DNA of 64,000 nt from Alphaproteobacteria bacterium (GTDB lineage Bacteria > Pseudomonadota > Alphaproteobacteria > CADEGL01). A model generated the notes under the pieces. It saw nothing but the letters and a program-made list of their open reading frames with translations. It had not been told where the DNA came from and searched no databases. This document shows positions 24,787 to 48,774 of this stretch, piece by piece; position 1 is the first letter of the stretch, and every line of letters begins with the position of its first letter. The position numbers and the translations under genes were made by a program. The stretch covers positions 14,604 through 78,603 of the forward strand of contig JBJXGH010000180.1 in NCBI GenBank assembly GCA_046153685.1. Reading direction: 5' to 3'.

Positions 24787-26385
24787 TCAGGCCGCGCGGC
24801 GTTTCAAATCGCGGATCACGCGCTTGGCCGCGTTGTGGCCGGGCGCGCCGGACACGCCGCCGCCCGGATGCGCGCCCGAGCCGCACAGATACAGGCCCGC
24901 CACCGGCGTGGCGTAGCGCGCCGCGCGCGGATGGGGGCGAAGGCTGAAGATCTGATCGAGATCGTGGCGGCCGTGGAAGATATCGCCCTCGGTCAGGCCG
25001 AAGACGCGCTCGAGATCGAGGGGCGAGAGCACCTGGCGGCCGACAACGAGAGCGGACAATCCCGGCATGTGTGCTTCGACGGCGGCGAGAATCGAATCGG
25101 CGACCTGTTCCTTGATCGCATCCCAGCTGCGCCCACCGGACAGATGGTAGGGGTAGTATTTGCACAGCAAGGACATGACGTGATGGCCCGGCGGCGCGAG
25201 ATCGGGATCGAGCGCCGAGGCAAGCTGCATGTTGATGTAGGGGCGTTCGGGCATCTCGCCGAGGCGCGCGGCCTGATAGCACCGCTCGACCGTTTCCGGA
25301 TCGGCGATCATGGTGATGGCGCAGCCCAGCGCGAAATCGCTATCCGACGCCGACAGACCCACGATTGTCGGCGCGCCCTTGAGCGCGAGATTCATGCGCA
25401 GCGAGGCGTGACCCATGCGCAGCCGCTCGATGTGATCGGCGAATTCGGGGTCGAGATGCTCGCGGCCCACGAAGCCGAGAAAGGTGCGCTTGGGGTCGGT
25501 GTTGGCCAGAACGACGCGCGCGGGAATTTCCTCGCCTGATTCGAGACGCACCCCGACCGCGCGGCCTCTGTCCATGACAATGCGCGAAACCGGCGCGGCC
25601 GTGCGGATCTCCACGCCTTGCTCGCGACAAAATGCCGCCATGGCCTGGGTGATGGCGCCCATGCCGCCCTTGGGTATGCCCCATTTGTAGCGCACGCCGT
25701 CGAGCTCGCCGAGCACGTTGAGGAAATAGGGCACGGCGGAGCCGGGTTGATGCAGGCTCGAAAAATTGCTCGATACGCAATGGACCGCGTAAATCGTCTT
25801 CATCACCGGGCTTTCGAACCAGCGCGAGAAGAAGTCGTGGGCGCTCATGGTGAAGGCCTGCGTCAGGAACAGCCGGTCCTCGAGCGCGAGCTTGCGCAAT
25901 TTGTTCACGGTGCCGAGGCTCGAGAAAATCGCCTCCCAGCCGCCCGCCAGATCCGGCGGCGGACGCAGCCATTGGTCGCGAATGATGTCGCCCACGCGCA
26001 GGAGCTGCGCGCGCAGACGCTTGGCCGCATCGTAATCGCGATTCGAGAATTGCCCGATCGTCGCCTGGTCGCGCGCCTCCTCGCCGGTGAACAGAATCGC
26101 GCGGCCGTCGTTCATGAGTTCGAGCGAACCCCGATAGGGGGTCGTGCGCAGGCCATGGCGCTTCAATTCGAGATCGCGGATGACCTCGCCGCGCAGGATT
26201 CCCATGGTGTAGGAGGCGATCGAGTTGCGGTAGCCCGGATGGAATTCCTCGGTCACGGCGGCGCCGCCGACCACCGCCCGGCGTTCGAGCACCAAGGTCT
26301 TGACCCCGGCCTTGCCGAGATAGCCGGCCGCGGTCAGCCCGTTATGGCCGCCGCCGATGACGATCGCGTCGTAAGTGCCGACCAT
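24787..26385 (-). CDS. Phytoene-desaturase-family (CrtI-like) NAD(P)/FAD-dependent oxidoreductase
   Basis: MVGTYDAIVIGGGHNGLTAAGYLGKAGVKTLVLERRAVVGGAA at the N-terminus. C-terminal ...LYLCGSGAHPGGGVSGAPGHNAAKRV is the characteristic CrtI-family tail. Confidence 0.7.
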   Translation of the reverse strand: MVGTYDAIVIGGGHNGLTAAGYLGKAGVKTLVLERRAVVGGAAVTEEFHPGYRNSIASYTMGILRGEVIRDLELKRHGLRTTPYRGSLELMNDGRAILFTGEEARDQATIGQFSNRDYDAAKRLRAQLLRVGDIIRDQWLRPPPDLAGGWEAIFSSLGTVNKLRKLALEDRLFLTQAFTMSAHDFFSRWFESPVMKTIYAVHCVSSNFSSLHQPGSAVPYFLNVLGELDGVRYKWGIPKGGMGAITQAMAAFCREQGVEIRTAAPVSRIVMDRGRAVGVRLESGEEIPARVVLANTDPKRTFLGFVGREHLDPEFADHIERLRMGHASLRMNLALKGAPTIVGLSASDSDFALGCAITMIADPETVERCYQAARLGEMPERPYINMQLASALDPDLAPPGHHVMSLLCKYYPYHLSGGRSWDAIKEQVADSILAAVEAHMPGLSALVVGRQVLSPLDLERVFGLTEGDIFHGRHDLDQIFSLRPHPRAARYATPVAGLYLCGSGAHPGGGVSGAPGHNAAKRVIRDLKRRAA

Positions 26386-26746
26386 TTGCATCCCCCCGAT
26401 ATTGTTTGATGGCTTAGCGCGGCCCGCTCCAGCTGTCATCCCCGGCATCCATTGGCTGGCCGATCGCCGGAAATATCGTTCGAAGGCGGCGCGAGGCGGG
26501 GGCTCTACATGGGCTTGGCTGGGAATCCAAACCTCAATCCCTAGGGCTGGGTGAAGGTTTGGACGATATATTTTGTATTCTGGCCCAGATATCGAATTGC
26601 GCCCCCGGAATCAGGGATAAGTCATAAATGATTGTTTCTACACAATTATTTACATTGACCCTGCTGGCGATATCGGGGGATTTCCCGTATAAGGAAAGAC
26701 ACATGAAGCGGCGCGGCGATGGTCTGCCGCCGAGCTATGAACGGCT

Positions 26747-27892
26747 ATGAAATCCGAACGCCTGATCGAAATGCTCAAGGTCCGTGCCAAGCCTGCGCTC
26801 GCCCTTGCGGTGCTGGCGGCGGGCGCGCTCGGCTATTGGCAATTCATCGGCTTCGGTCCCAAGGCCGCGAAGGAAGGCGGCGAGCGCGGGCCTGCGCCCG
26901 TCCTTGTCGCCGAAGCCGCGCGTCAAGATATGGCGGTGACCGCGGAGACGATCGGCAGCGTGCAGGCGTTCACCTCCGTCGCGATCAAGTCGCAGGTTGA
27001 CGGCCAAGTGACCGGCGTGCATTTCCGCGAAGGCCAGATGGTGAAGAAGGGCGAATTGCTTTTCTCCATCGACCGTCGGCCCTTCGAGGCGGCGCTGCGT
27101 CAGGCCGAGGCCAATCTCGCGCGCGACAGCGCGATGTGGGAGAAGGCCAAGCTCGATCTCGCGCGCTACCAGGAACTGGTCACTCGCGGCGTGGTGGCGA
27201 AACAGCAATTCGAAACCGCGCGGGCCAGCGCCGACAGCGCGGGCGCGACCGTCAAGGCCGACGAAGCCGCGGCGGAACGCGCGCGGCTCGAACTCGCCTA
27301 TGCCCAGATCCGTGCGCCCGTTCAGGGACGCACCGGCAATGTGCTGATCCAGCAAGGCAATGTGGTCAAGGCCAATGACGATAATCCGCTGGTTGTGATC
27401 AATCAGGTGCAGCCGATCTTCGTGGCGTTCTCGGTGCCCGAGCGCCTGATGCCGGGGATTAAAAGCCGCATGACCAAGGGTGGGCTTGCGGCGCAGGCGA
27501 CGGCACAAGGCGATAGCGGCGCGCCGCTCGTGGGCCGCGTCGAATTCATGAACAATTCCGTCGATGCCTCCACCGGCATGATCCAGCTCAAGGCCGTTTT
27601 CGAGAACGTCAACGAACGTCTGACGCCGGGCCAATCGGTCAACGTGCTGTTGACGCTCGGCACCATGTCCGAGGCCGTGACCGTGCCGTCTTCGGCCGTG
27701 CTCAACGGCCCCAAGGGCGCGTATGTCTATGTCGTCAAGGACGACATGACCGTCGAGCACCGCTTGGTTTCGGCCAGCGTCGCGCGCGAGGGCAAGACGG
27801 TCATCGATAAGGGCGTGGATGCGGGCGAAAAGGTCGTGACCGAGGGCCAGTTGCGCCTGTTCCCCGGCGCCAAGATCAAGTTGCCGTCGTGA
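26747..27892 (+). CDS. Efflux RND transporter periplasmic adaptor (membrane fusion protein, HlyD family)
   Basis: Signal/TM then a coiled-coil (LRQAEANLARDSAMWEKAKLDLARYQELV) and beta-barrel/MP domains; immediately upstream of the RND permease. Confidence 0.85.
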   Translation: MKSERLIEMLKVRAKPALALAVLAAGALGYWQFIGFGPKAAKEGGERGPAPVLVAEAARQDMAVTAETIGSVQAFTSVAIKSQVDGQVTGVHFREGQMVKKGELLFSIDRRPFEAALRQAEANLARDSAMWEKAKLDLARYQELVTRGVVAKQQFETARASADSAGATVKADEAAAERARLELAYAQIRAPVQGRTGNVLIQQGNVVKANDDNPLVVINQVQPIFVAFSVPERLMPGIKSRMTKGGLAAQATAQGDSGAPLVGRVEFMNNSVDASTGMIQLKAVFENVNERLTPGQSVNVLLTLGTMSEAVTVPSSAVLNGPKGAYVYVVKDDMTVEHRLVSASVAREGKTVIDKGVDAGEKVVTEGQLRLFPGAKIKLPS

Positions 27893-38571: not shown

Positions 38572-38629
38572 CGGGATCGCACGGTGCGTCATAATCCCTG
38601 TCTTGGCGCAGGGGATGGGGGGAAACGAT

Positions 38630-39457
38630 ATGTTCATTCGCACGCTCGACGGGCTTCGGGCCGAGGGCCGGATCAAATCCCTGGTTGGCGACACCACGCG
38701 CTCGGCGCGCTTTCTGGTGGCCGCGGACGGCTTGGGCTTTTCCTACAACGACAACCGGGTTGCCAAGGGTTCGGACACGAATCTTTGGTACAAGAATCAC
38801 TGGGAAGCCAATTACATCGTCGCGGGCGGCGCCGAGGTCACGGACTATGCCACCGGCCAGGTTCATGCGCTGGGGCCCGGCGATCTTTACACCGTCGGTC
38901 CGAACGACCGGCACCGCTTCCGCGTGACCGAGGATGAACACCATGTGAGCGTGTTCTGCCCGCCCTTGCGCGGCGACGAACGCCATGACGCAGATGGCGG
39001 GTACGAGGGCCACGCGCCCGGACCCAAGACCGCGCGGCGCATGTTCGTCAAACGCGGCGCGGAGATGCGTGCCGCCGGCCAGGAACTGATCTTCGCGGAC
39101 GGCAAGGACCGGACGCTGCGGATGTTGACCCAGGCGGACGATCTCGGCTTCGGCTTCTCCGACGTGCACTTCACCGCCGGCGCCGATACCGTGATCTGGT
39201 TCAAGCACCATTGGGAGGCGAACCACATCCTCTCCGGCACGCTCGAGGTCACCGAATTGACCACGGGCAAGGTGCACCGGGTGGAGCCGGGCATGGCTTA
39301 TAATGTCGGGCCCAAGGACCGCCACCGCCTGCACGCGCTTAGCGACGTGCACCTCATCAGCATTTTCTGCCCGGCCTTGCGCGGCGACGAAACCCATGAC
39401 GCGGACGGCTCGCTCTCGCCGAGCGGCCCCGTGCCGCCCGGCCCGAAGGGTGGCTGA
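38630..39457 (+). CDS. Tandem double EctC-like (ectoine-synthase-fold) cupin protein
   Basis: Two consecutive about 130-aa modules. Each matches EctC: MFIRTLDGL...WYKNHWEANYIVAGGAEV...VFCPPLRGDERHDADG and MFVKRGAEM...WFKHHWEANHILSGTLEV...IFCPALRGDETHDADG, against EctC's HYKHHFEAVYCIEGEGEV...VFTPGLTGNEVHREDG. Confidence 0.7.
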   Translation: MFIRTLDGLRAEGRIKSLVGDTTRSARFLVAADGLGFSYNDNRVAKGSDTNLWYKNHWEANYIVAGGAEVTDYATGQVHALGPGDLYTVGPNDRHRFRVTEDEHHVSVFCPPLRGDERHDADGGYEGHAPGPKTARRMFVKRGAEMRAAGQELIFADGKDRTLRMLTQADDLGFGFSDVHFTAGADTVIWFKHHWEANHILSGTLEVTELTTGKVHRVEPGMAYNVGPKDRHRLHALSDVHLISIFCPALRGDETHDADGSLSPSGPVPPGPKGG

Positions 39458-40886: not shown

Positions 40887-41683
40887 GCCTGCCCCTTCTA
40901 TCTGTCGCGGACGGAGGGCTATTGTCCTGGCTCGTCCGTTCCGCCATCGCCTTCCAGCGCGTCGCCAATGAGGAGATCGCGGCGCGCATGGGCGCCGTCG
41001 CCGATGGCGGGTCGGCCTCGGCCCTGCTCACGGCAATAGGTCTCGGATTGCTCTACGGCGCGATCCACGCCGCCGGGCCTGGGCACGGCAAGCTGGTGGT
41101 CGTCAGCTATTTTCTTGCCGAGCGGGCGGCCATCTGGCGCGGACTCCTCATGGGCGCGCAGATCGCATTTTTCCATGTCGTCTCCGCGGTCATCGTGGTC
41201 GGGCTCGCCGACGTCCTCATGCGCCAAAGCTTCGGTCGTCCGCCGGAGGAGATCGCGGGCGTCCGCATCGCCAGCTACGTCGCCATCATCTCCATAGGCC
41301 TCGCCCTTCTCGTTCGCGCGACCCTGCGCCTGCGTCACCGCCATGATCATGGCTGCCATCACGGCCATTCCCATGGCGGTCAAGGGCTGCTGGCGCTGGC
41401 CGTGGGCATGGTGCCCTGCACCGGCGCGGTGCTGGTGATGCTTTACGCCTTGGCGAACGGGATCGTCCTGGCGGGCATGCTAGTGACCATCGCCATCGGC
41501 ATTGGCATGGCGGTGAGCATGGGCCTCATGGGGATCGCCGCCGTGGTGGCGCGCGCGGCCGCAAGCCGTTGGATCGAGCGCGGGGGCCGGCCCGTCTGGG
41601 GGAGCGTCATCGAGATCGCCGGCGCCCTGGCCGTCACGGCTCTGGGCGCTTTTTTGCTCGCAGGGACGATTCTTTCTCGGTAG
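40884..41683 (+). CDS. Nickel/cobalt transporter-like permease (RcnA/NicO, COG2215) with His-rich loop
   Basis: ...AIHAAGPGHGKLVVVSYF... (NicO signature) and a His-rich loop RLRHRHDHGCHHGHSHGG. Start at ATG about 40884 inside the listed out-of-frame ORF. Confidence 0.7.
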
Positions 41684-41743
41684 GTCAGGTCTTTCTCGGT
41701 AGGTCGGCCCCTCGGTAGGTCGGACCTTTCTCGGTAGGTCGGG
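41670..41743. repeat. Tandem repeat, about 4 copies of an 18-19-bp unit (TTTCTCGGTAGGTCGG)
   Basis: ctttctcggtaggtcag gtctttctcggtaggtcgg cccctcggtaggtcgg acctttctcggtaggtcgg, starting in the last codons of the RcnA-like gene. Confidence 0.6.
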
Positions 41744-41864
41744 CGAAAAAGCACGCGGGGGGGAAAACTCCAGCCTCGATCGCGGCGCCTCTTTTGCGAC
41801 AATCGGGCTTGGAAAAACCGAGATACCGGAGGCACTAGGCCGGCCTACTACGCGCGTTCCGGTC

Positions 41865-42030
41865 AATCGCGGCCTGCCTGTGCGACCGAAACGCCGCGAT
41901 CTTTGACCAGTCTAACCGCCTCGAGCTTGAACTCGCGGCTGAAGCTTCTTCTCTGCGCCATGATCGTCCTCCAGTTCCAGTGTGACACCTATCTTTGTGT
42001 CCACGGAACCCGGAGCAGCCCAACCAGCTT
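41865..42030 (-). mobile_element. IS3-family insertion-sequence remnant (left end + truncated orfA N-terminus)
   Basis: Minus-strand GGAGGACgatcATG followed by MAQRRSFSREFKLEAVRLVKDRGVSVAQAGRD*, the IS3-family OrfA N-terminal HTH, truncated by a stop. About 60 bp of upstream sequence is repeated at 43098-43165. Confidence 0.5.
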
Positions 42031-42049
42031 GACGCGGTTGCTCATGTCA

Positions 42050-42589
42050 TCAGCCAGTAGACGGGGCGGTGCAACTGGCTCCGTTGCCACCCACGGGAAC
42101 TGTATCCTCAGGTTCGCCGACCTCGAGAGGCTTCTCCACGAGTGTGCCGATGATGCTGCCAAGGGTCAGGTCGTCGACATGACCGAAGCGCTGAAATCGG
42201 TGGAAACCGTTGCGGTCGATCACCACGAGCGTTGGCGTCCCCTGCATGTTGTAGGCGGTCATCGTCACCGGCAGACGGCCATCCTGCCGGTCGATGCCGA
42301 TCGGGAAACTCAGGCGGTATTCATGAGCGAATGCGGTGAGGGCCGCGTGCGTACCTTGCACCTCGTGATGTTCGAAGACCGTGTGAAGACCGATCACCGC
42401 GACATGGTCGCTCGGGAACACTTGAGCGATGCGCTGCGCTTGCGGCAAGCCGTGCGAGACGCAGCCTGGGCAAAGCATCTGGAAGGCTTCGATGATGAGG
42501 ACGCGGCCTCGGAAGTCAGGAATGTCGAGGGACTTGTTGGCATTGAGCCATCCACTGGTCTGGAGTGGCGGCGCACGATGCGGGGTCAT
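42050..42589 (-). CDS. Thioredoxin-fold redoxin (CPGC active site; AhpC/TSA/TlpA-like)
   Basis: ...GRVLIIEAFQMLCPGCVSHGLPQ...GTPTLVVIDRNG is a thioredoxin fold with a CxxC motif. Confidence 0.65.
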   Translation of the reverse strand: MTPHRAPPLQTSGWLNANKSLDIPDFRGRVLIIEAFQMLCPGCVSHGLPQAQRIAQVFPSDHVAVIGLHTVFEHHEVQGTHAALTAFAHEYRLSFPIGIDRQDGRLPVTMTAYNMQGTPTLVVIDRNGFHRFQRFGHVDDLTLGSIIGTLVEKPLEVGEPEDTVPVGGNGASCTAPSTG

Positions 42590-43059
42590 GGTGGGCGGTT
42601 CCTTTTCGCCTGATGAAGGTCCGGGCTCCCCGAGGGAGGGCCAGGCTGGGTTCGGATCATGCCACCCGCTTCAACTGGACGGCTGGAAAATCGATCGGAA
42701 CGTCCAGTGCCGTGAAATCGCGCCCAATCGTGACCCCGCCCGCGAAGCCATATAACGCATTGCATTGATTGCAGGATAGTCGAATTCGGTGAAGTCGCGT
42801 TTCGCGTCCAACCGCGACGCCTCCCAGCCACTCGATCCGATTGTTCCATCAACGAATTGGCGCCATCTGGTGGTGGGATCACGATTGGGCGCGATTTTAT
42901 ACCTTGTCGATCCGCTTCAATGTGGCCGACGCCGCGCGCCTCGGATGCTTCGACCGGTCCGTCGGCGTAGGGCCAGTTCATCCTACGTCGTCAGCTGCGC
43001 GAACCAAACACCGCGATCACTACGCGGGTCGTCCGTATTTCACAACGGTGTCGCCGTGC

Positions 43060-43165
43060 CGGCCGTTACGGATTGGCAATCCTGTATTTCACTCGTCGTC
43101 CAGCCATGACCGTCTTCCAGCTCCAAAGTGACAGCTAGCTCGGTGTCCGTGGAACCCGCCTGCCC
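43060..43165 (-). mobile_element. Second, more degraded copy of the IS3-family left-end remnant
   Basis: gggttccacggacac...tgtcactttggagctggaagacggtcATGgctgg is about 75% identical to the 41951-42025 copy. The short ORF MAGRRVKYRIANP* has diverged from MAQRRSFSREFK. Confidence 0.4.
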
Positions 43166-43360
43166 GCTCCAGGCAATTTGGAGCAATTAGGGCTCTGTTG
43201 TATAAGTAAATAGGTAATTTTTGGGAACCGTTCGGGCATAAGCGGGTCATAACGCCAGACCGTTTCCGGGGCAGTCGCACCTCTTTCCCCCTTTTCTTTT
43301 TGGAGACGGCCAATTTCGAACGCCACGCATGCCTCGCTAGGACGCGGCATCGCGATCACG

Positions 43361-44191
43361 ATGCTCGCGTGGTCGATCTTTCCGTCGCTCGATGCGATCT
43401 CAAAGTTCCTTGCCGACGGCTATAATGTTTACTTCGTGCTGTGGGCCCGGTTCGCCGCCCAGCTCCTGGTCGGCGTGTTGATCGTGCTGCCGCGCGGCTT
43501 GATCGGCACGGCCCGAACGCCCTTTCTGAGCCAGCAGCTGCTTCGCTCCGGCGGCTTCACCGCCCACACCGTCATATTCATCCTGGGCATCCTCACTTTG
43601 CCGCTGGCCGAGGGCAGCGCCCTGCTTTTCACGGGGCCAATCATGCTGGCCGCGCTTTCGGTGCCTCTCCTGAACGAGCGGGTGGACCGCGCCACCTGGA
43701 TCGCCGTGCTGGCCGGCTTCGCCGGTGCCATGGTCGTGATTCGCCCCGGCCTCGACTTCGCCAATTGGGGCGCCCTGCTGGTGCTGCTATCGACGCTCTG
43801 CTTCGTGCTTTACCAGATCGCCACGCGCTCGCTGGCGCAGCGCGAGAATCCCTACACGACTCTTCTTTACACGCCGGCGGTCGGCGCGGTCGCCCTGGGC
43901 CTGTGCTTGCCCTGGACCTGGTCGGCGCCCAGCATGCATGACGCCGCGTTGATGGGGCTGATGGGCCTGGTTGGCGCGGTGGGCCATTTGATGCTGATCA
44001 AGGCTTATGAAAACGCAGGCGCTGCCCAGCTCGCGCCCTACAGCTACGTGCATATCCTTTCGGCGGCTCTGCTGGGATATGCCGTCTTCGGCGACGTGCC
44101 AGATCTGTGGGCCGCGGCCGGTGCCGCGATCATCGCAGTTAGCGGGCTGTGGCTGGCCTGGCGCAAGGGCGTCACGGGCCGAGTCGCCTAG
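43361..44191 (+). CDS. DMT-superfamily (EamA-like) transporter
   Basis: 10-TM EamA-type architecture with two repeats (...LFTGPIMLAALSVPLLNERV..., ...GLMGLVGAVGHLMLIKAYE...). No in-frame start exists upstream before a stop, so the N-terminus may be slightly truncated by the adjacent IS remnant. Confidence 0.65.
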   Translation: MLAWSIFPSLDAISKFLADGYNVYFVLWARFAAQLLVGVLIVLPRGLIGTARTPFLSQQLLRSGGFTAHTVIFILGILTLPLAEGSALLFTGPIMLAALSVPLLNERVDRATWIAVLAGFAGAMVVIRPGLDFANWGALLVLLSTLCFVLYQIATRSLAQRENPYTTLLYTPAVGAVALGLCLPWTWSAPSMHDAALMGLMGLVGAVGHLMLIKAYENAGAAQLAPYSYVHILSAALLGYAVFGDVPDLWAAAGAAIIAVSGLWLAWRKGVTGRVA

Positions 44192-44580
44192 CTGATCCGG
44201 CGCCCGAATCGACGTGACCGAAGCGGCGTATTGTCGCCGGCGCCGGGAGTATGGCGCGCTAAAGGTTGCGCGGGCGTCGCGGATGAAGGTGCTGGCGGAA
44301 AAAACTCGCGGCTTCACAAGTCGGTATCGAACTTGACGCTGGGCGCACCAATCCTGAAATGAAGTGATTGACGAAAAGTTCAAAACTCCTCGCGGCGCCG
44401 TGCGTGGCGTATGATCGGCAGGCACCGTTCGACCCAGCGCAATCCCGCCCGGCCACGATTCGGCTAGCAACGCTTGTACGAGGTATTGAAGAAGCTCTTC
44501 GTCGTTCTCCAAGTATTGGTCACGGATTGCTCGCCGAAATACGGTGCCGCTGCTTGCGTTCTCGGAACATAAAACCACCA

Positions 44581-44680
44581 TGCGCTGTCGATGGCGCAAC
44601 AACCAAGTCGAGAATTCGCATCAGTTGACCCGGCGAAGAGAACGCAAGATGCAAGAATTCAAGAGCCCGGGCTCTGACCG
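44581..44680 (+). mobile_element. Possible IS6-family transposase C-terminal fragment
   Basis: Translation RCRWRNNQVENSHQLTRRRERKMQEFKSPGS resembles the conserved IS6-family transposase C-terminal motif (LNNRAENSHQPTRRRE..M..FKS). Low-GC surroundings; no intact transposase present. Confidence 0.35.
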
Positions 44681-44766
44681 ACCCCCACCGAGTGTAAAAT
44701 CGCCACTCAGGGAGTCATTATTGAAAGTGATTTTACAAGGGGGCGTTCCAACGGTAATTTTTCCGC

Positions 44767-45666
44767 ATGAGTTATTGCGTCTTCATGCATCGGGCGGACT
44801 CGATTTACGACGACAGCCCCGCCGAGCGATACCAGTTCCCTAAGCAGTATCTGAGCCGGGCAAACGGCAGCATTGGAGATTGGGTCGTATATCTTGAGCC
44901 TTCACGAATACCTGGCACGCGCGGTTATTTTGCGATCGCGCGGGTGCAGCAGATCATTCCCGATCCCAAAGCTCCCAGCATGTATCTGGCGCTCATTGAG
45001 CCTGGTTCCTATCTCGATTTCGCGCGCCCCGTGCCATTCAATGAAAGGGATGGTCCGATTGAGCGAGGGTTGCTGAACACGCACGGCAATCTTTCGGGGC
45101 GCGTACAAGCAGCAGTGCGCCCAATCTCTCCGCAAGACTTCAACCGGATCATTGAACGCGGAATCGATGATCAGGAACCATTGCTCCCGCGCGTCGCAGA
45201 TTCGGAATCAGTTACGGGCTTCGAAGACGGTCAAACGCCGTATATCCTCGAACAACCCAGAGACAGGGTTCGGTTCCTGACATCGCGCGTTGTGCGCGAT
45301 CGTGTTTTTCGCAAGATTGTCCTTCGCGCCTATGACGAGCGTTGCGCGATTAGTGGCCTGAAGATCGTTAATGGTGGCGGTAGAGCGGAGGTCGATGCCG
45401 CACATATCCAACCAGTGCAGCACAAAGGCCCTGACATCCTCCATAACGGCATCGCCTTGTCGGGTACAGCGCATTGGATGTTTGATCGTGGCCTCATAAG
45501 CCTTTCGGACGATCTTGAGATTCTCATTTCCCGTCAGACCAACGATGTCGCCAGCGTGCAATCTTTCATCAACAAGGGTGGCCGCGCCACGCCGCCGCTA
45601 CGTGTCGCGGATCGGCCGCATCCGCACTTTCTAAAGTGGCACCGCGACAACTGTTTCAAAAGTTGA
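44767..45666 (+). CDS. HNH_2 (COG3440-type) endonuclease with about 190-aa N-terminal domain; candidate modification-dependent (type IV) restriction enzyme
   Basis: C-terminal CAISGLKIVNGGGRAEVDAAHIQPVQHKGPDILHNGIALSGTAHWMFDRGLISL matches the HNH_2 pattern C.I.G...L.AAHI.P....D...NG..L....H..FD.GLI. N-terminal domain of unassigned family. Lies in the lower-GC island. Confidence 0.7.
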   Translation: MSYCVFMHRADSIYDDSPAERYQFPKQYLSRANGSIGDWVVYLEPSRIPGTRGYFAIARVQQIIPDPKAPSMYLALIEPGSYLDFARPVPFNERDGPIERGLLNTHGNLSGRVQAAVRPISPQDFNRIIERGIDDQEPLLPRVADSESVTGFEDGQTPYILEQPRDRVRFLTSRVVRDRVFRKIVLRAYDERCAISGLKIVNGGGRAEVDAAHIQPVQHKGPDILHNGIALSGTAHWMFDRGLISLSDDLEILISRQTNDVASVQSFINKGGRATPPLRVADRPHPHFLKWHRDNCFKS

Positions 45667-45857
45667 GTCTTCGGGAGAACGCCCGGCTCAAACGGCTGGA
45701 GGCAGATCTCTCGCTCGAGAAGCAGGCGCTCAAGGATATTGCCTCGGGAAGCTTGAAAGGCCCGAACGGCGTTGGCGGGCGGCGGATGAATTCGGCCTTG
45801 TAGATGCCGCCGATCATTCATGGGCGCGCCGCCGCTCTTCGTCTGACTAATTGGCAT

Positions 45858-46424
45858 TCAGATGTTGCGGCTATCGTAGGCCCAGTGCAGCAAGGCCTGT
45901 CGCTGGCGCGGTCTGCAAAAGGGATCGCCTGGTTCGCAGTTCTGTTTGATCTGCGCGATGTGTCGCCGGAACGCCTTCCAGCGCTTGATCTGGCGCTTGT
46001 CTTCCTGGGGCAGCCGCCGCCCCATGAAATAACGGCAGTACCACTGGAACCAGCCGCGCGGATCGTCGTCGTGAAGCCAACCGTTCCGACGCCACACCGA
46101 GAGAGGCTGGCTCGCATCGACACCGAAATAGTTGAGGGCGTCATTCCTGCCGGACAGCGACAGCTTGGCGTGCGTGAACCAGCTCGGGGGAAATTCCCTT
46201 CGGCAGTCAGTCAGGTACTTGCCGCCGAAAACACCGAGCGTCAGCATGTCCTTGGGTGTGAGTTCAGGGCGGAATTCCGGGTCGAAATTGCGCCCGAGCG
46301 GTTCCGTCAGGATGTAACGGTATCCCCGCTGCATCGTGTCGTTGACGATCACGCGCCTGACTCGATATCGCTTGGAGCTTTCCGCTCGATCCTGCGAATT
46401 CGATCTATCCATGACCGCGAACAC
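45858..46424 (-). CDS. Hypothetical protein (188 aa, basic, Trp/Arg-rich)
   Basis: Complete ORF convergent with the HNH gene; ...TLGVFGGKYLTD...WFQWYCRYFMGRRLPQEDKRQIKRWKAFRRHI. No family recognised by eye. Confidence 0.4.
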   Translation of the reverse strand: MFAVMDRSNSQDRAESSKRYRVRRVIVNDTMQRGYRYILTEPLGRNFDPEFRPELTPKDMLTLGVFGGKYLTDCRREFPPSWFTHAKLSLSGRNDALNYFGVDASQPLSVWRRNGWLHDDDPRGWFQWYCRYFMGRRLPQEDKRQIKRWKAFRRHIAQIKQNCEPGDPFCRPRQRQALLHWAYDSRNI

Positions 46425-46534
46425 TCGTTGCGTTGCGACTTGATCTGACGCGCATCGCGAGCCGGATAACGGGGCTCATTCTCAGACCCGTTTCCCGCCC
46501 AGGCGGTAAACCCGTGCCGCATCCAGCCGGTACG

Positions 46535-46594
46535 CCATGGCCCCCGTTGCCATGGTCCCCGTTGCCATGGTCCCCGTTGCCATGGTCCCCGTTG
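46535..46594. repeat. Perfect tandem repeat, 4 copies of a 15-bp unit (CCATGGTCCCCGTTG)
   Basis: ccatggcccccgttg ccatggtccccgttg x3, read directly. It encodes (QRGPW)4 in the minus frame of a doubtful 158-aa ORF. Confidence 0.7.
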
Positions 46595-46712
46595 AATGAG
46601 CTTGGCCGCTAGGATGCCGGATTCGAGCGTCTTACCCAAGCCAGTTGGACCCGCAATCAAAATACGCCGCCTTGGCTGCCTGAGCGCATGCGGTGCCGGG
46701 CCCAACCGGCGC

Positions 46713-46900
46713 TGACCTGCGCCCGCAGGACTCCTCCGGATTTGAGTAGAGTCCGTCGAGCAGGGAAAAGGGACGATGAAGGCGGGCCGGTTTGCGAAAG
46801 AGCACATCATCGCGATCTTTCGCAAGTAAGAGGCGGGAGCGAATGCGGCGGATGTGTCCGGTCTGCAGGGGATCAGCGGGGCGGCGTTTGATCCGAGCCT
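46713..46900 (+). mobile_element. IS3-family (IS407-group-like) left end with frameshifted orfA remnant
   Basis: TGACCTGCGCCC... terminal-IR-like start at 46713. ATG 46776 encodes MKAGRFAKEHIIAIFRK* then a shifted-frame EAGANAADVSGLQGISGAAFDPS (compare IS407-group OrfA ...EEQIIGFLKQAEAGMAVKDLCRKHGFSDATFY). It abuts a truncated ABC-ATPase gene. Confidence 0.45.
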
Positions 46901-46956
46901 CGACTTTCATCCCAATCAGCGCGTCTGTCGCTGGCGGACAAGGTGGTTGGCATGGG

Positions 46957-47280
46957 TCAATGCGATTCCTCGCGCGCGCCCAACGCTTGCTTGGCGGGAA
47001 CTCGATCGGCGTGTGCGATTGGGCCGTCAATGACGATGCGCAAGCCGCCATGCTGGGAATCGGTCAAGGGGCGCGCGGCGATCCGGAACACCCTTGCAAT
47101 GGCCTCGGCGGTGAAGACGGCGGATGGCGGCCCTGCCGCGGCTATCCGGCCGTTGAGGGCGATGACGGTCGTCGCGTATCGCGCGGCAAGGTCGATATCG
47201 TGCAAGACCGCCACGACCAACGCGTCCGAGTGGGCGAGTGAGACGCAGTGCGCCATGAGGTTGTGCTGAATCAGCCCGGC
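46957..47280 (-). pseudogene. Truncated ABC-transporter ATP-binding protein (FecE/HmuV-like), C-terminal fragment only
   Basis: ...LIQHNLMAHCVSLAHSDALVVAVLHDIDLAARYATTVIALNGRIAAAGPP... matches the H-loop/C-terminal region of iron-siderophore/haem ABC ATPases. Walker A/B, signature and start are missing; an in-frame stop sits at about 47280. Confidence 0.5.
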
Positions 47281-47331
47281 ATAGAGGATTTAGTCGCCTC
47301 CAGCGTCCGATCCGATGGGCGATCCGTCTCC

Positions 47332-48482
47332 TCAGTTGAGGCCGGAGAGCACCTTGAGTCCCCAACTGCCGCCAGCCGTCAGGATCACCACGAGCCAAGG
47401 CGGAATCTTCCGAAAAACCAAAAGCGCGAACGCGGCCAGCGCGAGGGCAAAATCGCCGGGCGAGAGAATGCCGCTCGTCCAAACCGGATTGTATAGCGCG
47501 GCGAGCAGAATCCCGACCACGGCGGCATTGATGCCGAGCAACGCCTTCTGGACGAGACGCGATTGGCGCACGGTGTCCCAGAATGGCAGCGCCCCCACGA
47601 TCAGTAAGAAGGACGGCGCGTAAATCGCGGTCAGACAGATCAAAGCGCCGAGCCATCCATTCGGCGCCGGTCCCATCACGGTGCCGAGATAGGCCGCGAA
47701 GGTGAACAACGGGCCCGGAACGGCCTGCGCCGCGCCGTAGCCGGCGAGAAAGGCGTCGTTCGACACCCATCCAGGCGGCACGACCGCGGACTGAAGCAGA
47801 GGCAGCACGACATGGCCGCCGCCGAAGACCAGGGCGCCCGAGCGGTAGAAGTTGTCGATGAGCGCCAGAGTCTGCGAGGGATAGGCGGAAGCGAGTATCG
47901 GCCGGCCGATCAGCAGCGCGAAGTACAGCGCCAGCGCCGTAAGGGCAACGCACTTACCGACTTCAATGCCCAGCGTGACCTGGCGCGAATTCATTTCGGC
48001 GCGCAGAAATGCGATCCCCATCAACCCGCCGGCGATGATGACGGCGATCTGGGCGAACGGCGTCGGCGCGGCGAGCACCGCGCCCGCGCCATTCCCCAGA
48101 CCGCCAGGGCAACGACCGCGACAGCGACCACCTTCAGGCCGTGCAGCACGGCGCCGGGAATCGCGTCGTGAAAAGCCGCCATGCCGTAGCCGAAGGCCAG
48201 GAGGGAGAGCGCCTATGGCATGGAGAAGGCGAACCAGGCGGCGAACGCTCCCGGCAGCCCCGCCTTGGCAAGCCCGATTCCGATCCCGACCTGGCTCGAT
48301 GCCGGCCCGGGAAGGAACTGGCACAACGCGACCAAGTCGGAGTAAGCGCGACCGTCGATCCAGCGGCGGCGCTTCACGAAGGCGTCGCGAAAATATCCGA
48401 GATGTGCGACCGGCCCGCCGAACGAGGTGAAGCCGAGCTGGAGGAAGGCGAGGAAGACGGCCGCGACCGGCTCGCGCTGCAT
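47332..48482 (-). pseudogene. chrA: Chromate transporter ChrA, disrupted (in-frame stop plus frameshift)
   Basis: N-terminal half ...FLAFLQLGFTSFGGPVAHLGYFRDAFVKRRRWIDGRAYSDLVALCQFLPGPASSQVGIGIGL... ends at an in-frame TAG (48213-48215), followed directly by ChrA-like ALSLLAFGYGMAAFHDAIPGAV... A frame change near 48060 leads into the C-terminal half. Confidence 0.6.
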
Positions 48483-48774
48483 CTGCCGATCCGGCTTGGC
48501 GGCCTCGTCCGCATCGCGCATCGGACTTGGCCCCACCCGATTTATCGATTCATGATTCGAACCTCGACCTTTCGCGCGGCGGGGTCAAGCGCGGCGAAAC
48601 CGGTGCGGCGCCTCCCGCCGTCCATAACGGTTCATTTTCTCGACGCAAGCGACGAAGCTCGACCGCGTAACCATGTCGGCGCCGCGCGCGCCGCAACACG
48701 GAAGGCCAGATCCGAATTGCGCGCCAAGCGCTCCAATCCCCCGGCCTGTGCGATGGCTCTTCAAGCCTTCCGCC

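Follow-up and report, generated by a model that had tools for sequence, protein, structure and literature searches.

A 6.7-kb stretch of insertion-sequence remnants and decayed genes carrying a homologue of type IV restriction endonucleases

Introduction

The closest described counterparts of the nuclease gene considered here encode the EVE-HNH enzymes of the VcaM4I/TspA15I group (PDB 6yex; PMC7897488, PMC6765204). With 309 aa, VcaM4I is similar in size to our 299-aa protein and comprises an EVE domain (residues 1-147), a linker (148-178) and an HNH domain (179-309) (PMC7897488), an order and a set of lengths that recur in the 299-aa protein. Its aromatic/hydrophobic pocket for the flipped modified base is formed by VcaM4I residues P24, W82 and Y130. 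PUA-HNH genes seldom adjoin methyltransferase genes (PMC6765204), and the VcaM4I group and the 299-aa protein are alike in being encoded by solitary genes with no methyltransferase gene alongside; at our locus, no methyltransferase domain was found in any frame from 41.7 to 48.7 kb. The two differ in that the 299-aa protein belongs to a clade apart from the VcaM4I/TspA15I group and that no similarity to the VcaM4I EVE domain could be detected in the sequence of its own.

The SRA-HNH type IV enzymes of the TagI/ScoA3IV group (PDB 6ghs), whose HNH domain is homologous to that of the 299-aa protein (E 1e-5), follow the same logic of a reader domain joined to HNH. SprMcrA-type phosphorothioate-dependent HNH enzymes (NCBIfam NF045808) match the C-terminal 130 aa (E 1e-28), but at 100 bits this match stays far under the 180-bit cutoff and covers the HNH half only, the sulfur-binding domain being unmatched.

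The surroundings of the gene have a known counterpart as well. Alphaproteobacterial genomes and plasmids have IS-rich variable or 'junkyard' regions in which IS3 and IS6 copies are nested and truncated, adjacent genes are cut short and a small cargo gene of foreign origin is present. The same features were found in the interval described below (positions 41865-48550 of the window, i.e. of the whole 64-kb stretch of DNA that was analyzed), with the difference that all transposases are dead here and the region is no longer active.

Results and Discussion

Content of the interval

The 6.7-kb interval is an ordinary accumulation of fragmented insertion sequences (IS) and dead genes (Table 1). Decay and IS scarring are real: besides six IS fragments, the interval holds three unambiguous remnants or pseudogenes and a DMT transporter gene damaged at its 5' end. 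An earlier note on this DNA had counted four IS remnants; IS debris is indeed present, but the scraps number at least six, five of the IS3 family and one of IS6. The note had further named the HNH nuclease gene and a convergent gene for a 188-aa protein as those remaining intact, which is correct for both, but the intact or nearly intact ORFs in the interval are four. That no intact transposase survives was borne out: no transposase-sized DDE ORF was present in six frames, and a six-frame Pfam scan of positions 41701-48700 found no full DDE domain, integrase or recombinase.

Table 1. Features of the interval, with positions in the 64-kb window
Feature	Position	Strand	Remarks
IS3-family left end with first 32 orfA codons (41865-41960), truncated	41865-42025	-	HTH_Tnp_1 E 9e-6, profile positions 1-31
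Redoxin/thioredoxin-like ORF, 179 aa, intact, CPGC motif	42050-42589	-	AhpC-TSA E 1e-5, Redoxin E 8e-5
MITE-like 183-bp element	42715-42897		Bounded by 26-bp terminal inverted repeats
Second IS3 left-end copy	43098-43165	-	Reaches the orfA ATG, no orfA after it
DMT/EamA transporter gene, compromised 5' end	43361-44191	+	EamA E 8e-16
IS3 orfA internal fragment B	44214-44303	+	~codons 37-66 of Bradyrhizobium BTAi1-plasmid IS3; tblastn E 8e-4
Low-GC insert of 1,376 bp splitting IS3 orfA	44296-45671	+	GC 0.550; contains IS6 scrap and EVE-HNH gene
IS6-family transposase internal scrap	44571-44666	+	~32 aa of DDE domain; DDE_Tnp_IS240
EVE-linker-HNH protein, 299 aa, intact	44767-45666	+	Homologue of type IV (modification-dependent) restriction endonucleases
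IS3 orfA 3' fragment C	45672-45800	+	~codons 65-106, through frameshift region
Conserved protein, 188 aa, intact	45858-46424	-	Convergent with HNH gene
15-nt tandem repeat, 4.1 copies	46534-46594		TRF score 115, 97% matches, one mismatch; at broken end of helicase scrap
SNF2/DEAD-type helicase remnant, ~41 aa	46590-46712	-	Motif I region only
IS407-like (IS3-family) left end with decayed orfA	46713-46940	+	Starts TGACCTGC
Heme/siderophore-type ABC ATPase remnant	46957-47256	-	C-terminal 99 aa; 5' two-thirds deleted
chrA (chromate efflux) pseudogene	47332-48536	-	Two Chromate_transp halves in different frames

The two copies of an IS3-family left end reported earlier were recovered and are identical at 45 of 56 positions of their ungapped core. 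The IS407-like left end with a broken orfA was likewise found as described, position 46713 being the exact start of the alignment to an intact annotated IS3-family element of Rhizobium sullae, while orfA codons 1-38 (46776-46889; 53% identical, E 1.5e-7) contain an in-frame stop. What had been taken for an IS6-like transposase tail is an IS6 scrap but not a tail; since its match (E 3e-4, 21 bits, short of the gathering score) falls inside the DDE_Tnp_IS240 profile, at positions 86-118 of 139, and it has no terminal repeat, it is an internal piece. Fragments B and C of an IS3 orfA had been overlooked. Fragment C is 74% identical to an annotated IS3 transposase and reached a DNA alignment score of 115 versus a shuffle maximum of 25; fragment B alone is weak, with a DNA score of 29 that falls inside the shuffle range and the protein match given in Table 1. 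No credible orfB match was present in the 64-kb window, the best one being 17 aa long (E 0.064) at 44390-44440; if true, this match would mean that fragments B and C derive from two different IS3 copies. A functional IS3 element has orfA (HTH) and orfB (DDE), linked via a programmed frameshift and enclosed by two terminal inverted repeats; left ends and orfA pieces only were found here.

Among the genes, the truncated ABC ATPase, the possibly 5'-truncated DMT transporter and the chrA gene broken by a TAG and a frameshift all proved to be as previously described. The ABC remnant aligns to positions 188-253 of the 261 positions of a heme ABC ATPase model (E 3e-13). Homology of the DMT gene, whose GC3 of 0.84 is host-like, to DMT genes of Azospirillum and Microvirga extends 8 codons further upstream than the first available start codon, and at their N-termini the homologues are longer by 21 residues or more. 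A functional ChrA is encoded by one uninterrupted frame with two Chromate_transp domains; comparison with Methylobacterium ChrA revealed that a TAG (CTA on the + strand, 48213-48215) replaces a conserved Ser and that the frame switches between query residues ~130 and 157, near 48.09-48.11 kb. The redoxin-like ORF (GC3 0.73, codon z -1.8) and the SNF2 helicase scrap, which is 63% identical to annotated plasmid SNF2-related/DEAD-box helicases (E 7e-8), were absent from the earlier note.

The inverted-repeat arms of the MITE-like element are 92% complementary (fold z -4.5); their motif occurs at these two sites only (0 expected), and the element is present in a single copy in the 64-kb window. 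Instead of the two perfect tandem repeats claimed before, an exact scan located one in the interval, consisting of three perfect copies of the 15-nt unit at 46542-46586.

A probable foreign insertion within an IS3 orfA

The noticeably lower GC attributed to the interval (0.615 versus 0.651 for the whole window) could be assigned to the 1,376-bp insert only. None of 546 windows of equal size taken from outside the interval reached so low a GC (minimum 0.609; GC outside the interval 0.656 +/- 0.020). The interval without the insert, at 0.62-0.64, did not conform to the description. Codon usage followed the same division. The HNH block, with a GC3 of 0.60 versus 0.81 +/- 0.02 and a codon-usage z of -4.2, contains the sole outlier gene of the interval, and the redoxin-like, DMT, 188-aa and chrA genes (z -1 to -2) resembled the flanking NicO and fatty-acid hydroxylase genes.

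Fragments B and C, between which the insert lies, are adjacent in the reference IS, where DNA alignment placed them at nt 1798 and 1801. With an IS3 orfA interrupted by it, the HNH block would be the most recent insertion, and from this nesting together with the composition we infer that the entry of the foreign segment into the orfA of one IS3 copy was the last event. An 8-bp target duplication made by IS6 at the insert ends was considered and discarded as too degenerate, CGGAAAAAAC and CGGGAGAACG sharing 7 of 10 positions, and the IS6 scrap is internal and lacks terminal repeats. Nor did comparison with four other loci, at 67-82% nucleotide identity, define the ends of any mobile cassette containing the HNH gene. 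In all four, the alignable sequence ends no more than 12 bp from the ORF; non-coding flanks are not alignable at this divergence anyway.

The EVE-HNH protein

The 299-aa protein is a solitary homologue of type IV (modification-dependent) restriction endonucleases, as its EVE (PUA-like) reader, linker and HNH domain reproduce the VcaM4I architecture. The C-terminal domain matched HNH_2 of Pfam with 35.6 bits versus a cutoff of 21, the HNH half is homologous to that of VcaM4I (E 1.6e-6), and the catalytic His, Asn and His (H213, N227 and H236), which 39 homologues share without exception, line up with those of VcaM4I and TagI. The N-terminal domain has the PUA-superfamily (EVE) fold; it had no match to the Pfam EVE model and is 11% identical to the VcaM4I domain in a structural alignment. 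Phenylalanine, tyrosine and tryptophan residues of the EVE half are invariant in the homologues (F6, Y14, Y22, F24, W39, Y54, F55, F85 and F91), an identity of 11% precluding their residue-level superposition on the VcaM4I pocket. The structure model is of low confidence (pLDDT below 50) at residues 135-231, which comprise the linker and the first part of the HNH domain.

The clade to which the protein belongs is mostly alphaproteobacterial and tightly conserved, with 69-83% identity across genera, and no characterised member was found. The contexts of the homologues are mobile or defence-related: the Agrobacterium gene is accompanied by part of a recombinase gene and by a gene for a BrnA antitoxin, and that of Rhizobium sp. 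AB2/73 by AbiE and a type I R-M system. Exact-protein look-ups with the HNH and 188-aa products returned no identical entry.

The earlier note had argued that the HNH and 188-aa genes are intact and therefore under selection. Both are intact, and both proteins keep every family-invariant residue without excess changes at conserved sites (zero deviations in the 188-aa protein), which fits function. For the HNH gene, however, recent arrival explains intactness equally well because the block would be the youngest insertion, and the conserved sites lend weak support to the view that the two genes may be under selection. A promoter and terminator scan around both genes gave nothing above background.

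Origin of the interval

We consider it probable that IS elements repeatedly inserted among host-like accessory genes here and mediated deletions, leaving a scar field and not one coherent mobile element, with the HNH segment arriving last. Several IS3-family elements and one IS6 element landed in the interval and were afterwards reduced to scraps of 60-230 bp. These events truncated putative resident genes, cutting the SNF2 helicase down to motif I and the ABC ATPase to its last 99 aa and removing the 5' end of the DMT transporter gene. Inactivation of chrA by one nonsense mutation and one frameshift was separate and more recent. Finally, the foreign segment with its solitary EVE-HNH gene would have entered the IS3 orfA.

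That the whole 6.7 kb was instead acquired as one old genomic island, now decaying around genes kept by selection, was the proposal of the earlier note. Its decay component stands, and IS debris is clustered here together with pseudogenes and genes of accessory type, with an overall GC below that of the window and no other IS scrap detected across the 64 kb. We nevertheless regard a single island as unlikely, since only the 1.4-kb HNH block is foreign in the composition and codon-usage check and the remainder matches the flanking genes, and since the parts are of unequal age, the IS scraps being almost erased versus two lesions only in chrA. The marks of a classical island, namely an integrase or recombinase at one end, a tRNA/tmRNA site with direct repeats and a composition shift across the whole element, were absent as well: no integrase or recombinase was encoded in any frame, no tRNA, tmRNA or Rfam match was present in the 64 kb, and the two borders share no word of at least 12 bp. 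A search for the same gene order in relatives found no close relative, the best NicO matches being 55% identical (185,579 species genomes) and 52% identical (JGI metagenomes); these relatives share no genes downstream, synteny ending at DUF1007-NicO. An exact-protein look-up placed NicO on two short contigs only, and a 'Derxia' MAG contig (L032) holds just its last 189 bp, at the contig end.

It is very unlikely that the helicase (DISARM/Dpd-like), the EVE-HNH protein and the 188-aa protein are the remains of a defence island, i.e. a past or present anti-phage module. The best matches of the helicase scrap are indeed DrmD/DpdE-type models (E 3e-5 and 8e-6 for DrmD), the plasmid-borne Rhizobium homologue of the HNH gene has defence neighbours, and one 188-aa homologue adjoins a RecD2-like helicase gene. 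However, the helicase survives as ~41 aa only, the HNH block entered an IS at a later time and has a GC3 of 0.60 versus 0.76 for the 188-aa gene, and the 188-aa protein has no PADLOC match. Its homologues lie in four unrelated neighbourhoods, none with an HNH gene, and no gene neighbourhood is conserved; the 188-aa gene is an unrelated stand-alone conserved gene and a neighbour of the nuclease gene by chance. Misassembly is typical at repeated IS ends, but a patchwork made by assembly or chimera formation is barely conceivable given that NicO, the IS3 orfA scrap (called there as the same gene) and the first part of the redoxin gene recur, 100% identical, on an independent metagenome contig (L041), that a 293-aa protein on another contig differs from the HNH protein of the window by one residue, and that the scrap copies have diverged instead of forming identical repeats.

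Predicted activity and significance

By homology with VcaM4I and TagI, a modified base of incoming DNA, most likely 5-methyl- or 5-hydroxymethyl-cytosine, would be flipped out by the N-terminal EVE domain and kept in a pocket, whereupon the C-terminal HNH domain (beta-beta-alpha-metal), probably as a dimer, would cut the DNA. Such an enzyme could restrict phages and plasmids with modified bases and would need no partner methyltransferase; its dependence on base modification we infer from homology. The region may serve as an example of a putative solitary type IV restriction gene arriving as a gene-sized foreign block within IS debris, and it draws attention to an uncharacterised, tightly conserved, mostly alphaproteobacterial EVE-HNH clade. 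It matters little outside annotation and has no bearing on a long-standing open question.

The 188-aa protein

The 188-aa gene survives beside the putative type IV nuclease gene and the SNF2 helicase scrap. Its product had no Pfam, NCBIfam, PADLOC, PHROG or PDB match; in the PDB, neither its sequence nor two profiles found more than chance-level matches to bL35m (E 0.1), the AF2 model (pLDDT 48) was too poor for a fold search, and nothing was found in the literature on its GWFQWY motif. It is highly improbable that the protein is the first noticed member of a large unannotated family whose survival amid defence debris reflects a function in defence or in the modification or repair of nucleic acids, for instance by acting on the type of modified DNA sensed by the nuclease. 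The ORF does point to a very large, strongly conserved family that carries no annotation in any library searched, with more than 8000 matches (the best 120 at 71-83% identity and with no Pfam domain among those 120) that form 2394 clusters at 50% identity. Rare members of this family are fused to polynucleotide-kinase-like P-loop domains.

Content and composition of the interval

The roughly 6.7-kb interval 41865-48550 is best read as a field of IS scars and not as a coherent island, and its explanation is an ordinary one. The observation made in the earlier note was real and mostly accurate: all four IS remnants it listed were found, as were the last 99 aa of the truncated ABC ATPase, both chrA lesions and the two intact convergent genes encoding the HNH nuclease and a 188-aa protein. 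Its view that no intact transposase survives agrees with six-frame Pfam scans of the interval, which revealed neither a transposase-sized DDE region nor domains beyond those listed in the table. Not on its list were two further fragments of IS3 orfA and one of an SNF2 helicase, and a redoxin-like ORF is likewise intact. Just one of two claimed perfect tandem repeats is present, and the IS6 piece, taken for a transposase tail, is an internal scrap without terminal repeat.

Features of the interval 41865-48550
Feature	Position	Strand	Remarks
IS3-family left end and first 32 orfA codons, then stop	41865-42025	-	HTH_Tnp_1, E 9e-6
Redoxin-like ORF, 179 aa	42050-42589	-	intact
Element with 26-bp terminal inverted repeats	42715-42897		183 bp
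Second copy of same IS3 left-end sequence	43098-43165	-	core 45/56 identical
DMT/EamA transporter gene	43361-44191	+	
IS3 orfA piece, codons about 37-66	44214-44303	+	
IS6 DDE-domain scrap	44571-44666	+	about 32 aa
HNH nuclease gene	44767-45666	+	299 aa
IS3 orfA piece, codons about 65-106	45672-45800	+	74% identity to annotated IS3 transposase
188-aa gene	45858-46424	-	
15-nt repeat	46534-46594		4.1 copies
SNF2/DEAD helicase scrap, motif I	46590-46712	-	63% identity to plasmid SNF2 proteins, E 7e-8
IS407-like left end and decayed orfA	46713-46940	+	in-frame stop
Heme/siderophore-type ABC ATPase	46957-47256	-	last 99 aa
chrA, broken	47332-48536	-	stop and frame switch

Closer examination of the damaged features revealed that a TAG replaces a conserved Ser of chrA at 48213-48215, with the frame switch near 48.09-48.11 kb. 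A chrA homologue on the Bosea vaviloviae plasmid NZ_CP017148.1 (locus L043, 2982-3496), split over two frames and without an annotated CDS, appears to be an independent pseudogene. Similarity of the DMT gene to its homologues persists for 8 codons ahead of the first candidate start codon (ATG, GTG or TTG), and intact homologues are longer by at least 21 N-terminal residues; it follows that the start has been lost from this gene, bearing out earlier doubts about its 5' end. Homology of the IS407-like left end to an intact Rhizobium IS3-family element starts exactly at TGACCTGC. The 183-bp element, single-copy in the window, looks MITE-like, its inverted repeats being 92% complementary (fold z -4.5).

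The lower GC reported for the interval as a whole holds for 44296-45671, the block containing the HNH gene, which supplies almost all of the deficit, and not for the remainder (0.621 to the left of the block, 0.640 to the right). At 0.550, this block lies below all 546 equal-sized windows outside the interval (mean 0.656, sd 0.020, minimum 0.609), in a window of about 65% GC. Third-position GC of the HNH gene is 0.60, compared with 0.81 +/- 0.02 for 28 confident window genes, and its codon-usage log-likelihood falls 4.2 sd under that of host genes. The redoxin, DMT, 188-aa, ABC and chrA sequences are at -1 to -2 sd, as are the flanking NicO-type transporter and hydroxylase genes. The sole other window site as low in GC (0.52-0.53 over 300 nt), at 26400-26850 between divergent ORFs 24787-26448 (-) and 26747-27892 (+), is probably a promoter region.

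Probable insertion of the nuclease block into an IS3 copy

In an alignment to an intact IS3-family element of the Bradyrhizobium BTAi1 plasmid, the last IS nucleotide matched by the orfA piece upstream of the block is 1798 and the first matched by the downstream piece is 1801. Since these ends abut, the two pieces are most simply taken as halves of one orfA with the 1,376-bp low-GC block between them. Of these, the downstream half aligns unequivocally (score 115 versus a shuffle maximum of 25), while the upstream half is weak in DNA alignment and rests on a protein match (E 8e-4) and the exact abutment. Only one observation speaks against a single split orfA, a faint orfB-like match (44390-44440, E 0.064).

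The right junction of the block lies at most 5 bp from the HNH stop codon, and at four other homologue loci (67-82% nucleotide identity) similarity breaks off no more than 12 bp from the ORF. Those homologues (loci L001, L044, L088 and L089) have GC3 values of about 0.58-0.64 regardless of host GC. Because GC3 stays in this range across hosts and DNA similarity stops so near the ORF ends, the gene appears to behave as a gene-sized mobile unit without recognisable cassette ends.

Identity of the nuclease

Pfam recognised HNH_2 alone (residues 193-246). Across the C-terminal 130 residues there is a match to the HNH half of a phosphorothioate-dependent restriction model, well under its cutoff; in the PDB the same residues match TagI and VcaM4I, both modification-dependent enzymes. 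Domain order and lengths are the same as in VcaM4I, which consists of an EVE domain (1-147) that flips 5mC or 5hmC into a hydrophobic pocket, a linker helix (148-178) and an HNH domain (179-309) through which it dimerises (PMC7897488). With 39 homologues as input, AlphaFold modelled residues 1-133 confidently and residues 135-231 poorly. PUA-HNH genes usually stand by themselves, at a distance from any methyltransferase gene (PMC6765204), and this one is likewise solitary. Full-length homologues (69-83% identity) from Hyphomicrobium, Chelatococcus, Methylobrevis, Parvibaculum, Bradyrhizobium and Bosea sit in variable or defence contexts; on an Agrobacterium plasmid a homologue neighbours a recombinase scrap and a BrnA antitoxin gene, and on a Rhizobium plasmid one has AbiE on one side and a type I R-M system on the other. 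Catalytic H213, N227 and H236 are invariant, and the window's protein has no surplus of changes at conserved positions. Based on its domain layout, HNH and PDB matches, solitary gene, homologue contexts and conserved residues, we filed the protein as a predicted new EVE-HNH type IV restriction endonuclease homologue.

Origin of the interval

The earlier note had proposed an old, horizontally acquired island undergoing decay. A scar field is preferred because neither integrase nor border repeats were found by six-frame Pfam scans and border comparison of the interval, no tRNA that could have served as target lies within the 64-kb window (which is also without Rfam matches), and the parts are of unequal age: the IS scraps are almost erased, chrA carries two lesions alone, and the HNH block retains foreign composition inside an IS, into which it would have been inserted late. 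That the SNF2 helicase, the type IV nuclease and the 188-aa protein worked together in a defence island, since decayed, is an alternative with little support, as the HNH gene was never beside a 188-aa homologue in the four contexts examined, each with different neighbours, and the juxtaposition of the two genes here looks accidental. The selection previously argued from intactness is a weak inference in the case of the nuclease, whose recent arrival would explain it equally, and a somewhat better one for the 188-aa gene. In the window the latter has host-like GC3 (0.76) and zero deviations at conserved sites.

The 188-aa family

Of the points left over, the unannotated 188-aa family alone is of wider interest. 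It is very large (more than 8000 matches in a word-indexed search, the best 120 of them sharing 71-83% identity; 2394 clusters at 50% identity in an exhaustive search) and strongly conserved, with motifs including DPRGWFQWYCRY..GRR and RPRQRQALL.WAYD. No match was obtained in Pfam, NCBIfam, PADLOC, PHROGs or PDB, and the AlphaFold model was of too low quality for use. Rare members are fused to an AAA_33/polynucleotide-kinase-like P-loop domain or DUF5872, which hints at a possible role in nucleic-acid metabolism; such fused relatives (P0390, P0304 and P0334) include one embedding in a 1696-aa multi-kinase protein. In one lineage (loci L002-L006) the 188-aa homologue shares 4 bp with a 95-aa ORF upstream of it, and a gene for a 735-aa RecD2-like helicase comes next, an arrangement absent in the three other contexts.

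Flanks and relatives

The interval is flanked by ordinary metabolic and transport genes, encoding an FAD oxidoreductase, a PhyH dioxygenase, a double ectoine-synthase-like cupin, an ABM monooxygenase, DUF1007 and the NicO-type transporter on the left, and a fatty-acid hydroxylase, a polysaccharide deacetylase and a second PhyH dioxygenase on the right. With the NicO protein as probe, no close relative was found among 185,579 species genomes (nearest match 55% identity) or JGI metagenomes (52%), and synteny with its relatives does not extend past the DUF1007-NicO pair. Identical DUF1007-NicO genes occur on two short metagenome contigs, one of which runs from NicO across the first IS3 scrap and enters the redoxin gene; this junction is therefore no assembly artefact. 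Directly after the NicO stop codon, four copies of CTCGGTAGGTCGG (41676-41742) are spaced at 19, 16 and 19 nt, where 0.06 would be expected by chance. The two tandem cupin domains are encoded by one 284-aa ORF (38603-39457), adjoining the PhyH dioxygenase and ABM monooxygenase genes.
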